Below are positions 2,509-4,903 of a stretch of 4,903 bases of DNA, piece after piece. The stretch comes from a virus (taxonomy: Duplodnaviria; Heunggongvirae; Uroviricota; Caudoviricetes). Numbering within the stretch: position 1 is the stretch's first letter; each line of letters opens with the position of its first letter. The stretch is taken from positions 1 to 4,903 of IMG/VR virus record IMGVR_UViG_2663762857_000011; one strand, 5' to 3'. The notes beneath the pieces were generated by a model. The model did not search any database, had not been told where the DNA came from, and saw only the letters and a program-made list of their open reading frames with translations. The position numbers were made by a program, and so were the translations under genes.

Positions 2509-3107
2509 TCTATTTTCCTCTGCACAAGATATTAGTTTCTCCACAAAACAGAGAAGAACACCTGCGGTGGCAGCCGCCCGGGTGGATTGGGTTATGAGCC
2601 CGTCGTCCGGTGATGCTCTTCTCTGTTTTGTAAAAAGAGCGGTACCAGCCGGAAGCAAGTGTACAAACTGGTACCGCCAAAGCAGTGGCTGCTGTGGTGA
2701 CCGATGCTGATCTCCGGCTTGCGGTTATTTCAGACTCTCACGGGCGTTTAATTGCCCCGCCGAACAGCTCTTTTCCGCAATAGCTGCAATGTCTTTCGTG
2801 CATCAGCCTGCGCATTCACCACAACGCTGAGAGCACTTAGCCAGTTACGGCACCACACTTTGTCGCGGTTCCATAAATGCCCTCATCGTTGCACCCTGGT
2901 CTCTTCCCAGGTGTCAAACCGAACCGCCACGCTGGTTAGGCGTCTTATCAGCATCCTCATTGACTTGCACATTCCGGCTACCTGGTTTGTTTGCCCGAGC
3001 AAGGAGTGGATTGTCCCCTTTAACGTCCCCAGACCGCTAACGACGCATGTGCCATACGCCGTGTTACAACCAAATTTTGTTTAATCTTGCCTGTGACATG
3101 TTTCTTT
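2509..3107 (-). other. Long (~590 nt) untranslated, GC-enriched, inverted-repeat-rich leader between the pL-like promoter and the first leftward gene; candidate structured RNA or regulatory element
   Basis: No minus-strand ORF of 60 aa or more. All three minus frames are interrupted by stops (one frame has stops at 3066, 3039, 2916, 2847, 2805 and 2727). Local GC is about 55-57% against roughly 40-45% in flanking genes (estimated by eye). Multiple hairpins, including the 18 bp inverted repeat at 2543..2631 and GGTACCAG/CTGGTACC at 2641..2675. Confidence 0.4.
2543..2631 (-). repeat. 18 bp inverted repeat flanking a 53 nt GC-rich loop (89 nt hairpin) just upstream of the RdgC-like RBS
   Basis: Plus acaaaacagagaagaaca (2543..2560) against tgctcttctctgttttgt (2614..2631). 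The single mismatch is A/C on the plus strand but a G.U wobble on the minus-strand RNA, so the stem is fully paired only in the leftward transcript. Confidence 0.6.
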
Positions 3108-3142
3108 TAGATACATTATGTATCTCAAGGGTACATTGTCAA
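3108..3142 (-). promoter_or_regulatory. pL-like early leftward promoter (-35 TTGACA, 16 nt spacer, -10 CATAAT)
   Basis: On the minus strand, TTGACA at 3142..3137 and CATAAT at 3120..3115. Sits immediately downstream of the cI terminator and upstream of the leader. The -10 is overlapped by the 17 bp palindrome. Confidence 0.5.
3109..3125. promoter_or_regulatory. Operator-like 17 bp perfect palindrome (agatacat-t-atgtatct) overlapping the -10 of the pL-like promoter (oL candidate)
   Basis: Perfect 8 bp arms around a single central base. The position overlapping a promoter -10 is typical of a repressor operator. Confidence 0.45.
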
Positions 3143-3146
3143 GTAT

Positions 3147-3169
3147 AAAAAAACCTGCCGAAGCAGGTT
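3147..3169 (-). terminator. Rho-independent terminator downstream of the repressor gene
   Basis: Minus-strand RNA: AACCUGC-UUCG-GCAGGUU followed by five or more U. That is a 7 bp stem with a UUCG tetraloop, starting 12 nt after the cI stop at 3181..3183. Confidence 0.7.
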
Positions 3170-3180
3170 ATAAATATTGA

Positions 3181-3855
3181 TTAGGCCTTTATTTTGTATC
3201 TTCTTGGTTTTCCTGAGAAAATTACTGTGCCAATTATAGAGCAATTACCGTTGATCTTAATGTAAGGTTCAGGCCAGTTTGGGTTTAATGCTTTGAGGTA
3301 ACGCTGTGTTCCATCTTCTATCAACCGCTTAAAGGTGGTTTCGCCTGTATCGTGCATCAATGCAATAACGTCGTCACCGTGGCAGGCAGGGACTTCAGGA
3401 TCTACAAAAATCATGTCTCCCGGGCGGTACTCATCAATCATTGAATCACCAATCACCCGCAAGATATAAGTCATTTCGCCACAGGGTACAGGGCAGGGAT
3501 AAGTTTCTGCTGTGCTCAAATCAACCTCAGAATAGCCAACTTCTTTCCATGCTCCGGCCTGTACCCATGATATGACAGGGACTAACGTTATTTGTTTGTT
3601 AGTAATTGAAACATCAGGTTTTTTTGTGATGTTTGTTGTCTGGTGTTCTTGATCAAGCCATCCGACAGGCAGGTCGAAACATTTTTCGATGTGCCGTGCC
3701 ATGCTGTCACCGATATTTTTAGTAGCACCATCTCCCATAAACCTGCTGGTCTGGGTTGGCTCGCGATCAATCATGGTGGCAAAGGAAGAATTCCCGCCAA
3801 CACCATCTCTCAGTTTTCTGGCGTTAGACCGCCGGATGTCATGGACTGTTTTCAT
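3181..3855 (-). CDS. Prophage repressor, CI/LexA family (N-terminal HTH plus C-terminal S24 autopeptidase), 224 aa
   Basis: ORF track 3181..3855. The C-terminal domain has the S24 signature: GDSM with Ser138, FKRL with Lys176 (38 residues apart), and a candidate Ala100-Gly101 autocleavage site (VQAGAW). The N-terminal 70 aa is HTH-like. Divergent from the Cro-like gene and followed by a terminator. Confidence 0.9.
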   Translation of the reverse strand: MKTVHDIRRSNARKLRDGVGGNSSFATMIDREPTQTSRFMGDGATKNIGDSMARHIEKCFDLPVGWLDQEHQTTNITKKPDVSITNKQITLVPVISWVQAGAWKEVGYSEVDLSTAETYPCPVPCGEMTYILRVIGDSMIDEYRPGDMIFVDPEVPACHGDDVIALMHDTGETTFKRLIEDGTQRYLKALNPNWPEPYIKINGNCSIIGTVIFSGKPRRYKIKA

Positions 3856-3871
3856 AACGAAATTAAAACCT

Positions 3872-3890
3872 TTGTACCGATAGGGTACAA
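3872..3890. promoter_or_regulatory. Operator-like 19 bp perfect palindrome TTGTACC-gatag-GGTACAA in the cI/cro intergenic region (oR candidate)
   Basis: Perfect 7 bp arms with a 5 bp spacer. Located 17 bp from the cI start codon and about 55 bp upstream of the cro start. GTAC-containing half-site-like motifs recur at 3934..3948 and 3131..3136. Confidence 0.45.
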
Positions 3891-3945
3891 GTATCTTTAA
3901 GGTTCATCTCAATCATGTAGTATGTATATTGGAGGTACATATTGT

Positions 3946-4146
3946 ATGAAAGCGTATTGGGACTCTTTAACCAAAGAACAGCAGGGCGAGTTGGCCGGAA
4001 AAGTTGGCTCAACACCAGGCTACTTACGGCTGGTTTTCAATGGTTATAAAAAAGCCAGTTTTGTGCTGGCTAAAAAACTTGAGCAATGCACGTCAGGTGC
4101 AATTACGAAATCTGACTTAAGACCGGATATCTATCCGAAAGATTAA
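3946..4146 (+). CDS. Cro-like small HTH regulator (YdaS/Cro family), 66 aa
   Basis: Start trimmed from the ORF-track 3922..4146 to ATG at 3946, which has GGAGG at 3931..3935. The upstream ATG at 3922 has no RBS and would translate the SD itself. The C-terminal motif ...SGAITKSDLRPDIY resembles the YdaS-type Cro pattern (...G.V....LRPD). Divergent from the repressor. Confidence 0.75.
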   Translation: MKAYWDSLTKEQQGELAGKVGSTPGYLRLVFNGYKKASFVLAKKLEQCTSGAITKSDLRPDIYPKD

Positions 4147-4177
4147 CAGAACACCTTCAATTTTTAACCACAGAACG

Positions 4178-4747
4178 ATGAGGCTAACCGTGGGTAAGCA
4201 TCACTGGAAAGTAGAAAAACAGCCTGAGTGGTACGTGAAAGCTGTCAGAAAAACTATCGCGGCGTTGCCGGGGGGTTACGCTGAAGCTGCTGAGTGGCTG
4301 GATGTAACAGAGAACGCTTTATTCAATCGCCTTCGTGCCGATGGCGATCAGATTTTCCCGCTGGGATGGGCAATGATTTTACAACGTGCTGGTGGAACTC
4401 ACTTCATTGCTGACGCTGTGGCGCAGTCTGCAAATGGCGTCTTTGTGTCTCTTCCTGACGTCGAGGATGTGGACAACGCCGATATTAACCAGCGTCTGCT
4501 GGAAGTCATCGAACAGATCGGGAGTTACTCAAAGCAGATTCGTTCGGCAATCGAAGATGGGGTAGTGGAACCGCATGAGAAAACAGCAATTAACGACGAA
4601 CTGTATCTTTCAATTTCGAAGCTCCAGGAGCATGCAGCACTGGTCTACAAAATCTTCTGCGCTCCAGAAAAGAGTAACGCCCGCGAGTGTGCAGCTCCGG
4701 GCGTCGTGGCGTCGATTGCTTCTGGTTGTGGAGAAACTAACGCATGA
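4178..4747 (+). CDS. CII-like / YdaT-family early regulatory protein (189 aa; possible GTG start at 4190 giving 185 aa)
   Basis: ORF track 4178..4747. Sits directly after cro, the position that CII or YdaT occupies in lambdoid prophages. GAGG lies 6 nt before the in-frame GTG at 4190, whereas no clear SD precedes ATG 4178. The family assignment is by position and general resemblance only. Confidence 0.6.
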   Translation: MRLTVGKHHWKVEKQPEWYVKAVRKTIAALPGGYAEAAEWLDVTENALFNRLRADGDQIFPLGWAMILQRAGGTHFIADAVAQSANGVFVSLPDVEDVDNADINQRLLEVIEQIGSYSKQIRSAIEDGVVEPHEKTAINDELYLSISKLQEHAALVYKIFCAPEKSNARECAAPGVVASIASGCGETNA

Positions 4748-4903
4748 ATAGTTTAACGGCAAATAACCGTTTGCATATTGATTCTGCAATTCCGGGACGT
4801 TACACTGCTCAGGCACCTTATAAAGCGGGGGCCGGGCGTGGAAACCCGAAATTCAATATAGAGCACAACCGCGCTCATGCGGTTTTTTCGTGTCATGAGC
4901 ATC
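4744..4903 (+). CDS. Hypothetical protein, partial: N-terminal 53 codons, continues past the right edge; occupies the position of a replication or early gene
   Basis: ATG at 4744 overlaps the upstream TGA (ATGA). GGAG lies about 10 nt upstream. The frame is open to the window end (MNSLTANNRLHIDSAIPGRYTAQAPYKAGAGRGNPKFNIEHNRAHAVFSCHEH). No family recognised. Confidence 0.4.
   Translation, partial: MNSLTANNRLHIDSAIPGRYTAQAPYKAGAGRGNPKFNIEHNRAHAVFSCHEH

Follow-up and report, generated by a model that had tools for sequence, protein, structure and literature searches.

The window analysed here, a stretch of 4,903 nucleotides, carries two perfect palindromes, one at each control region of what appears to be a cI/cro-type switch, and the question raised by this locus is whether they represent two kinds of operator or one. 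The initial annotation described them as different in sequence, and proposed either two operator classes or a single protein with relaxed specificity. We suggest instead that a single operator class, the 17-bp symmetric sequence TGTAYC-N5-GRTACA, is present at five positions and forms the lambdoid immunity switch of the e14/SfV/cdtI/Ayreon family, a reading to which we would assign a probability of roughly 0.8.

The genes at the locus are those of a lambdoid switch, with an S24 repressor gene and a small gene for a Cro-type helix-turn-helix protein in divergent orientation. On the minus strand, positions 3181-3855 encode a cI-like repressor of the YmfK/CohE type (224 aa), with an N-terminal DNA-binding domain and an S24 self-cleaving domain; on the plus strand, positions 3946-4146 encode the Cro-like YmfT/CroE (66 aa), with a YdaS-type helix-turn-helix. 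The repressor matches Pfam Peptidase_S24 (1.5e-26), the C-terminal domain of lambda CI (1.9e-9) and PHROG transcriptional repressor families, and it carries the S24 motif residues Ala100-Gly101, Ser138 and Lys176. No Pfam helix-turn-helix was detected in its N-terminal domain at E<0.01, and the support for this being the putative DNA-binding domain consists of the PHROG families and a weak match to SPC32H Rep (PDB 5d50; 0.0026). The Cro-like protein matches PHROG_35, a transcriptional repressor family (3e-15), and Pfam YdaS_toxin at 1.5e-5, which is under the gathering score, with a weak HTH_3 match as well. In E. coli genomes the two genes are annotated as ymfK or LexA family protein and as ymfT, respectively, and the latter is annotated as cro in SfV and cdtI.

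The same genes and control DNA make up the immunity regions of e14 (ymfK/cohE, ymfT/croE, ymfL), SfV, cdtI and Ayreon. Repressor, Cro and control DNA are near-identical to those of the e14/SfV immunity type, the annotated gene names are ymfK, ymfT and ymfL, and K-12 e14, SfV and Ayreon show 94-97% mean column identity to the window across oL and oR, the leftward and rightward control regions. Against E. coli chromosomes, window region 3000-4200 reaches 99.8% identity, and it has matches in 2252 of the 5426 complete genomes of this species. Left of the leftward promoter pL, the window differs from K-12 e14 in its genes, having RdgC-like and HD-domain genes. The SfV GenBank record contains a 'putative operator region' that corresponds to window positions 3872-3940, and the Ayreon record has a promoter annotated at the position matching pL. 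The region is an ordinary lambda-style switch, of the kind carried by the e14/SfV prophages that are common in E. coli; no binding study of YmfK or YmfT was found in the searchable literature on SfV, e14, ymfK, cohE and the motif, and a Reg-Seq preprint that includes ymfT-iModulon genes reports nothing on this promoter. Our analysis leaves the general understanding of phage switches unchanged. What it provides is a map of the operators and promoters of an immunity type present in about 40% of the complete genomes of E. coli, including K-12 e14 (with its control of the SOS-inducible division inhibitor YmfM), SfV, cdtI and some Stx2c-converting phages, a map that shows which bases to mutate and that the apparent second palindrome should not be taken for a regulator site of its own.

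Both palindromes are, as first reported, perfect inverted repeats: TTGTACC-GATAG-GGTACAA at 3872-3890 in oR, and AGATACAT-T-ATGTATCT at 3109-3125 in oL. Such perfection is not enriched in the window, which holds five perfect palindromes with arms of at least 7 and loops of at most 6 (four of them distinct, the cI terminator being one), against 2.45 +/- 1.8 in dinucleotide shuffles. Because shuffles give similar numbers, we dropped the palindrome count as evidence and relied on the shared motif and its conservation instead. The count would also be compatible with the two palindromes being functionless chance occurrences, a reading that we consider extremely improbable, given that the motif that they share occurs far above expectation, lies on promoter elements and is conserved in sequence and position over about 15 genera in which the bases around it drift. 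The description of the palindromes as different in sequence does not extend to their half-sites: both are made from a single one, TGTAYC/GRTACA, set in opposite arrangements. Scanning for TGTAYC-N5-GRTACA returns five matches at 10/12 or better (0.41 expected from shuffles), every one of them inside the two control regions, and four at 11/12 or better (0.02 expected), and at neither threshold does any of 1000 shuffles reach the window's count. Even with the strict oR palindrome alone as the pattern, two of the other sites described below, OL1 (11/12) and OR1 (10/12), are still found, and across the whole 44.7-kb Ayreon genome four of the five matches at 11/12 or better are these operator sites.

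The operators could be compared across related prophages, in a set of 19 loci (17 distinct) from about 15 enterobacterial genera whose repressors are 73-100% identical; the alignments comprise 18 sequences. Throughout the 19 loci, the oR sites are centred at -26, -43 and -76 from the cI ATG. The first of these, the putative operator OR3 (3873-3889; TGTACC-GATAG-GGTACA, 12/12), is the core of the oR palindrome and overlaps the -35 element and spacer of the maintenance promoter pRM; it is seen in all the related loci compared, its two halves invariant and its spacer free to vary. The site centred at -43, OR2 (3890-3906; AGTATC-TTTAA-GGTTCA), is a weak putative operator at 10/12, with the -35 element of the rightward promoter pR inside its spacer. 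It scores at least 10/12 in 14 of the 19 loci, with the same two mismatches each time, and its half ATGAACC is nearly invariant (GTGAACC in one relative, L016). OR2 adjoins OR3 without a gap, at 17 bp from centre to centre, and since it is also only a 10/12 match, it is not certain that both would be occupied at once. The third site, OR1 (3923-3939; TGTATA-TTGGA-GGTACA, 11/12), covers the start region of pR, contains the cro Shine-Dalgarno sequence GGAGG (3931-3935) and is a putative operator that scores at least 11/12 in all 19 loci. The best and perfectly symmetric site is the one at the OR3 position, over pRM. In the OR alignment every conserved block corresponds to one of these three N5-type sites or to a promoter, and no second conserved motif is present. 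The shared motif, the conservation and the overlap with promoters all argue that the oR palindrome is, as proposed, an operator of a cI/cro-type switch. A GTAC-containing partial site had also been noted at 3934-3948; the sequence GGTACATATTGTATG is indeed there, but the cro ATG falls within its TTGTATG part, whose position is not conserved beyond the E. coli lineage.

In this region both pR and pRM stay below the threshold of a consensus promoter scan. The pRM-like maintenance promoter (3862-3890, minus strand) is weak, and consists of a -35 TTGTAC (3890-3885), lying within OR3, a 17-bp spacer and a -10 TTTAAT (3867-3862). The remark that the cI start has no Shine-Dalgarno sequence and a TTTAAT element just upstream proved accurate (TTTAAT-TTCGTT-ATG), and the element is fixed relative to the gene: nnTAAT occupies -12 to -7 from the A of the cI ATG, leaving a gap of 6 nt, in 17 of 18 sequences, and lies one base further out, with a 7-nt gap, in the remaining one (L020). 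In K-12 e14 the start of ymfK has been mapped by dRNA-seq to the A of the ATG, leaving a leader of 0 nt (PMC4681348, Table S3), and the stretch from -10 to ATG is identical between K-12 ymfK and the window. The idea of a leaderless cI mRNA consequently holds, and a transcription start at the A of the ATG (3855) is supported. For pR, we infer a promoter at 3896-3923 (plus strand), with a -35 TTTAAG (3896-3901) inside OR2, a 16-bp spacer and a -10 TAGTAT (3918-3923), and a start predicted near 3928-3931. Its -35 reads TTGnnG in 16 of 18 sequences, TTT being found in the window and in L015, and its -10 reads TAATAT or CATAAT in most relatives; the window's versions of both elements are rare changes, common to one of 80 IMG/VR loci. 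A -10-like hexamer with A at position 2 and T at position 6 is present in all 18 sequences, 16 bp downstream of a conserved TTG; its last base is the first T of the OR1 half-site, just as the -10 of pL ends on the first T of OL2, the second of the leftward sites. Analogy with pL had suggested another -10 for pR, CATATT at 3938-3943, which we rejected because the conserved -10 of the relatives sits at 3918-3923; a start from CATATT would moreover fall downstream of the cro ATG.

At the leftward control region the same kind of site recurs. The promoter pL (3115-3142, minus strand) is strong, scoring 11/12 in the consensus scan, and has a -35 TTGACA (3142-3137), a 16-bp spacer and a -10 CATAAT (3120-3115), with both hexamers invariant in the 18 sequences and a start predicted near 3108. 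Its spacer is filled by the putative operator OL1 (3119-3135; TGTATC-TCAAG-GGTACA), which also overlaps the -10 and which scores 12/12 here as in all 19 loci, its half-sites carrying 2.0 and 1.85 bits per position against 0.52 for the spacer. The other GTAC element of the initial annotation, GTACAT at 3131-3136, is present, and is the right half of the full OL1 and not a partial site. OL2 (3099-3115; TGTTTC-TTTTA-GATACA, 11/12), a weaker putative operator, spans pL from about -7 to +10 and is found at the same position, at 10/12 or better, in 11 of the 17 distinct loci. Its proximal half is almost invariant (1.90 bits per position) and its distal half only weakly conserved (0.85), to the point of being unrecognisable in 6 of the 17, and in 5 of 80 IMG/VR loci the site has the full consensus, TGTATC-CTATA-GATACA. 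In all 19 loci OL1 and OL2 are a constant 20 bp apart and downstream of the cI terminator, at 55-85 bp past the cI stop, a distance that follows the length of the terminator. Over the motif as a whole, half-sites carry 1.85-2.0 bits per position, compared with about 0.5 in the 5-bp spacers and about 0.4 in the flanks, and most of the variation among the 80 IMG/VR loci is located in the spacers.

The position of these two sites accounts for the oL palindrome, which reads GATACA-TTA-TGTATC and joins the proximal half of OL2 to the -10-proximal half of OL1, with the -10 of pL inside it. Two symmetric sites 3 bp apart always create such a junction, and, as far as sequence can tell, the oL palindrome is the seam between neighbouring OL2 and OL1 and no separate operator class. 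Its perfection is lineage-specific: the junction is imperfect in K-12 e14 and SfV (GGTACAT-T-ATGTATC), from which, as from Ayreon, the window's perfect version is separated by few base differences, and in roughly a third of the 80 IMG/VR loci. As no junction-type palindrome is conserved at oR in the 18-sequence comparison, the junction cannot be a general Cro operator class.

It is also conceivable, if unlikely, that there are two classes after all, with the N5-type sites serving the repressor and the pL junction, GRTACAT-A-ATGTAYC, bound by Cro, by another protein or by a repressor complex on three half-sites. Since the proximal half of OL2 is near-invariant despite the decay of the distal half, the junction GRTACAT-A-ATGTACC is itself conserved everywhere, both half-sites and the TAA between them being nearly invariant in 18 of 18 sequences even where the distal half has been lost. 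The E. coli lineage has a similar GGTACA-TAT-TGTATG after OR1 (3934-3948), positions 3111-3136 are 77% complementary to 3922-3947 over 26 nt, and Ayreon carries TGTACATAATGTACA upstream of int. Yet the TAA at the centre of the junction belongs to the invariant pL -10, CATAAT, and the half-site is the same as that of the N5-type sites, so that there is no second recognition sequence. Nor is the perfection of the junction kept, the R/Y variants on its two sides varying independently, and at OR no junction-type site is conserved beyond E. coli; the half at 3942-3948 holds the cro ATG and lies at a variable distance from OR1. Two operator classes would be recognised by different half-sites, each at both control regions; what we find is one half-site and one N5 geometry at oR and oL alike, which speaks equally against a single protein with relaxed specificity. 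A more restricted form of the idea is that the three-half-site block at pL, TGTACC-N5-GRTACA-TAA-TGTACC, which is kept even where the fourth half-site has decayed, might be a distinct composite site, either a Cro target formed by the outward-facing half-site pair or the seat of a non-canonical repressor complex. We regard this as unlikely; if true, a composite pL site together with the best operator over pRM would give the common e14/SfV switch a logic unlike that of lambda.

A different possibility is that the palindromes act as RNA hairpins or terminators and not as protein-binding DNA. A terminator scan does flag 3871-3891 on both strands, and the predicted folds of 3866-3900 (-9.6 kcal/mol, z = -2.5) and of the minus strand of 3100-3134 (-7.2 kcal/mol, z = -4.8) are hairpins, but the T-runs are poor, and each palindrome is located upstream of the start, or right at the start, of the transcripts that would have to carry it (pRM at 3855, pR near 3930, pL near 3108). 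In the 18 aligned sequences the arms are invariant, without compensatory changes, and the loops variable, and the imperfect symmetry of OL1, OR1 and OR2, which would weaken a hairpin, is nonetheless conserved base for base. We therefore consider an RNA role very improbable.

With a single operator class, the two regions can be read, as the initial annotation had it, as parts of a cI/cro-type switch, one controlling its leftward and the other its rightward side: related sites between cI and cro overlap the divergent promoters, and sites of the same class lie at pL, OL1 in the spacer and OL2 over the start. Computation on the sequences gives the sites with their spacing, conservation and promoter overlap, and the leaderless cI start comes from published experiment on the near-identical K-12 e14 region; which protein occupies which site, and in what order, we infer, as we do activation from OR2. 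Repressor dimers on OL1 and OL2 would block pL, and dimers on OR1 and OR2 would block pR, while binding at OR2, at -43, could stimulate pRM in the manner of lambda CI at its own OR2. With OR3 occupied, pRM would be shut off, whether by abundant repressor, by Cro in the early lytic phase or by both. Cro most likely acts on the same sites as the repressor, for which the lack of a second conserved motif at OR is an indirect argument. Self-cleavage of the S24 domain, stimulated by RecA, would release repression. The putative recognition stretch of the repressor, EPTQxSR, is invariant across the repressors, as are the half-sites, this joint invariance of recognition helix and half-site being found in a set that is 73-100% identical; a scan of viral contigs for repressors returned near-identical ones only.

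As in lambda, cI and cro are divergent and separated by three related pseudo-symmetric operators of 17 bp, and pL has further ones; the middle site is near -42/-43 of pRM and another, at the OR3 position, lies over pRM. Also shared are the leaderless cI mRNA and a repressor whose S24 C-terminal domain is homologous to that of CI. The arrangement differs from that of lambda in the half-site sequence, TGTAYC, and in the centre-to-centre spacings at OR, 17 and 33 bp here against 23-24 bp in lambda. The window has two OL sites, 20 bp apart, where lambda has three, and its closest match to the consensus occupies the OR3 position, which reverses the affinity order of lambda CI. Also unlike lambda, OR1 encloses the cro ribosome-binding site, oL and oR are separated by only about 0.75 kb, and the YdaS-type Cro is, by sequence, no relative of the lambda Cro fold. 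A likeness to LexA can be seen in the repressor, an S24 protein of the LexA family, and in a site that contains TGTA...TACA, but compared with the SOS box (CTGT-N8-ACAG) the spacing is 3 bp longer (TGT-N11-ACA), and no LexA-box-like sequence at 7/8 or better occurs in the control regions, the sole match in the window being at position 50.

The cI transcript would end at an intrinsic terminator (3152-3169, minus strand), a hairpin with an RNA fold of -10.3 kcal/mol (z = -4.7) followed by a U-run; a hairpin and T-run are found in most related loci and are not evident in L018. The report of svsR (PMC12803456) prompted the idea of a small RNA at the cI 3' end that shares this terminator, for which an internal promoter-like TTAAGA-16-TATAAT (3260-3233) was considered; it is probably a chance occurrence, because synonymous changes break the TATAAT in five relatives. 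An Rfam scan of the whole window returned nothing in 3100-3945, and an isrK-like match at 4813-4889.

The region is the known e14/SfV immunity switch, with a lambda-like architecture. The ORF list and family searches place a minus-strand repressor gene (cI; 224 aa, 3181-3855, Peptidase_S24 domain, 1.5e-26) beside plus-strand cro, encoding a Cro-like helix-turn-helix protein (66 aa, 3946-4146), followed by a gene for a CII-like Phage_CP76 family member (4178-4747); to the left of the repressor gene lie genes for an RdgC-like and an HD-domain protein. The C-terminal domain of the repressor resembles those of lambda CI with known structures (1.9e-9), residues 1-76 show a weak match to 5d50, the repressor of Salmonella phage SPC32H (0.0026), and direct reading of the sequence shows the cleavage site Ala100-Gly101, Ser138 and Lys176 to be retained. 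E. coli chromosomes match 3000-4200 at up to 99.8% identity, and this segment is matched in 2252 of 5426 complete E. coli genomes, with genes annotated ymfK (cI), ymfT (cro) and ymfL; the same immunity region is found in K-12 prophage e14 and is shared by phages cdtI, SfV, Ayreon and Stx2c-converting phages. We found no biochemical study of the e14/SfV switch operators in the searchable literature, and the five-site map proposed here is a useful prediction rather than a surprise.

The initial annotation rightly read 3100-3945 as leftward and rightward control regions, and its two perfect palindromes, at 3872-3890 (oR) and 3109-3125 (oL), are present exactly as described. Perfect palindromes are unremarkable per se, with five matches in the window (four distinct, one being the cI terminator) versus 2.45 +/- 1.8 in shuffles; one such palindrome, CTTCTTT-GTAAG-AAAGAAG, with 7-bp arms at 1617-1635 close to where the RdgC-like gene ends, bears no relation to the operator motif. 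The suggestion that the two palindromes mark distinct operator classes is unsupported, as the arms of both belong to sites of the same geometry. The repeat finder reported 3119-3135 (TGTATCTCAAGGGTACA) as a direct copy of the oR core (3873-3889), 3120-3136 as similar to 3891-3907, 3117-3136 as similar to 3921-3940, and 3098-3116 and 3118-3136 as inverted copies 1 nt apart; hence the right arm of oL is the left half of one full oR-geometry site, and its left arm the right half of another.

Scanning the window with TGTAYC-N5-GRTACA at a threshold of at least 10/12 recovered five predicted operators, all within the two control regions: OL2 (3099-3115, 11/12) and OL1 (3119-3135, 12/12) on the leftward side, and OR3 (3873-3889, 12/12), OR2 (3890-3906, 10/12) and OR1 (3923-3939, 11/12) on the rightward side. 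Shuffles gave 0.41 matches at this threshold and, at 11/12 or better, 0.02 versus four in the window. The pattern was derived partly from two of the five sites themselves; a strict pattern from the oR palindrome alone still recovers OL1 (11/12) and OR1 (10/12). An SfV GenBank feature, "putative operator region", corresponds to 3872-3940, exactly OR3 to OR1, and these switch sites account for four of the five matches at 11/12 or better across the whole 44.7-kb Ayreon genome. Ayreon also carries an operator-like TGAACCGTGTTGATACA (23054-23070, 11/12), which overlaps the beginning of a short ORF (23060-23251), and TGTACATAATGTACA (25569-25583), 40-54 nt before the integrase gene begins, with the same core as the junction of OL2 and OL1; both may be additional targets of the repressor or chance matches. 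Two GTAC-containing stretches previously taken for partial sites resolve on this map: the element at 3131-3136 is real but is the outer half of OL1, and within 3934-3948, GGTACA belongs to OR1 as its outer half while TTGTATG, whose distance to OR1 varies in other genera, holds the cro ATG.

Scanning the repressor protein against one genome per species yielded 19 loci with repressors 73-100% identical, from Escherichia, Pseudocitrobacter, Klebsiella, Leclercia, Atlantibacter, Phytobacter, Enterobacter, Pantoea, Trabulsiella, Kluyvera, Limnobaculum, Rahnella, Edwardsiella, Entomohabitans and others. This comparison of operators, which the initial annotation had proposed as a check, returned a single motif at fixed positions. 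OR centres lie 26, 43 and 76 bp upstream of the cI ATG in all loci (two are offset by one base), and two OL sites lie 20 bp apart downstream of the cI terminator in every locus; centre-to-centre spacings (OL1-OL2 20 bp, OR1-OR2 33 bp, OR2-OR3 17 bp) are constant across genera. Half-sites are near-invariant versus freely changing 5-bp spacers; in OL1 the halves carry 2.0 and 1.85 bits per position, the spacer 0.52 and flanking DNA about 0.4. Invariant arms, free centres and the lack of compensatory changes indicate protein recognition rather than RNA pairing, and RNA hairpins were also rejected on the grounds that the palindromes lie outside mapped or predicted transcripts and lack good U-runs. 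Motif statistics together with conservation exclude a chance origin, and a scan of the control regions found no LexA boxes. The putative repressor recognition stretch EPTQxSR is conserved across the set, as is the Cro segment GYLRL (DYLRL in locus L015). In the E. coli loci L004-L006 the cro frame runs on into a long downstream ORF, suggestive of a decayed prophage in which a deletion has fused cro to a gene further along.

The predicted leftward early promoter, pL (11/12), has -35 TTGACA (3142-3137), a 16-bp spacer and -10 CATAAT (3120-3115); all relatives share both hexamers unchanged, and at the equivalent position the Ayreon record has an annotated promoter. OL1 fills the pL spacer, and OL2 takes the final T of the -10 as its first base and extends over the predicted start. 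For the predicted rightward early promoter, pR, all relatives carry a -10-like hexamer (TAATAT, CATAAT, TAGAAT or TATCCT) whose final base is the first T in the OR1 half-site, with a conserved TTG 16 bp upstream of it, within the OR2 spacer; by comparison, the window's elements are TAGTAT (3918-3923) and TTTAAG (3896-3901). Among 80 IMG/VR loci, 79 have TTGAAG versus the window's TTTAAG and 79 have TAATAT versus its TAGTAT, both rare changes occurring together in only one, and the window's pR may be a weakened allele of a domesticated prophage. The conserved TCC in the OR1 spacer reflects the cro Shine-Dalgarno (GGAGG, 3931-3935) within that operator. At the predicted cI maintenance promoter, pRM, nnTAAT occupies -12 to -7 from the A of the cI ATG in nearly all relatives, and the -35, TTGTAC, 17 bp upstream of this -10, is made by an OR3 half-site. 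Six variable bases follow the -10 and, in agreement with the earlier remark, cI lacks a usable Shine-Dalgarno sequence. The leaderless cI transcript suggested there is correct and already documented: only five leaderless mRNAs are listed from dRNA-seq of E. coli MG1655, one of them being ymfK, with its start site at the gene start and a leader length of 0 (PMC4681348), and K-12 and the window are identical from the -10 to the ATG.

We propose that repressor dimers on OL1/OL2 and OR1/OR2 would occlude pL and pR. Lambda CI activates pRM from OR2 at about -42, and OR2 here, centred at -43 of pRM, would by analogy occupy the activating position. OR3, centred at -26 and overlapping the pRM -35 and spacer, should switch pRM off when filled. 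In contrast to the lambda CI affinity order, the best site here is at the OR3 position, which would be consistent with strong negative autoregulation or, alternatively, with a site that Cro prefers. Repression would be relieved when SOS induction triggers self-cleavage of the S24 domain.

The oL palindrome itself, GATACA-TTA-TGTATC, joins the inner half of OL2 to that of OL1 across the -10, and any two symmetric sites with a 3-bp gap necessarily create such an inverted repeat. Its perfection in the window is set by the R/Y variant of each half: in K-12 e14 and SfV the seam is the imperfect GGTACAT-T-ATGTATC, and it is likewise imperfect in about one-third of the 80 IMG/VR loci, which have near-identical repressors, and in 6 of 17 diverse loci. 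The main rival explanation is that a separate protein binds this outward-facing pair of half-sites, and in its favour the junction is conserved everywhere: the proximal half of OL2 is almost invariant (1.90 bits) though the distal half drifts (0.85 bits, no longer recognisable in 6 of 17 distinct loci). We instead read the proximal half as a strong half within a weak operator that is filled cooperatively, since OL2 sits at pL exactly as OR1 does at pR and is full-consensus in 5 of the 80 IMG/VR loci; in OR2, likewise, one half is invariant and the other drifts.

Beyond OL2, a different conserved block (CAGGCAGGACGCCCACGAAGTAGCCGCC...) follows in other genera. In the window, pL is separated from the RdgC-like gene by a leader of about 590 nt (2509-3108, minus strand) that is rich in GC, poor in ORFs and without an Rfam match; a long hairpin in it (25-nt arms, 2543-2567 and 2607-2631, 84% complementary) immediately precedes the ribosome-binding site of that gene. 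Within the cI 3' end, a promoter-like TTAAGA-16-TATAAT (10/12; 3233-3260, minus strand) could with the cI terminator yield an RNA of about 80 nt; it is probably chance, since synonymous changes disrupt TATAAT in five relatives. An sRNA, svsR, is described at the cI 3' end in prophage NC-SV (2026 paper, PMC12803456). Within the ORF starting at 4744, after ymfL, 4813-4889 (plus strand) matches the Rfam isrK Hfq-binding sRNA (RF01394; 57.7 bits versus a gathering score of 50, E = 7e-11) and ends in a hairpin and U-run.
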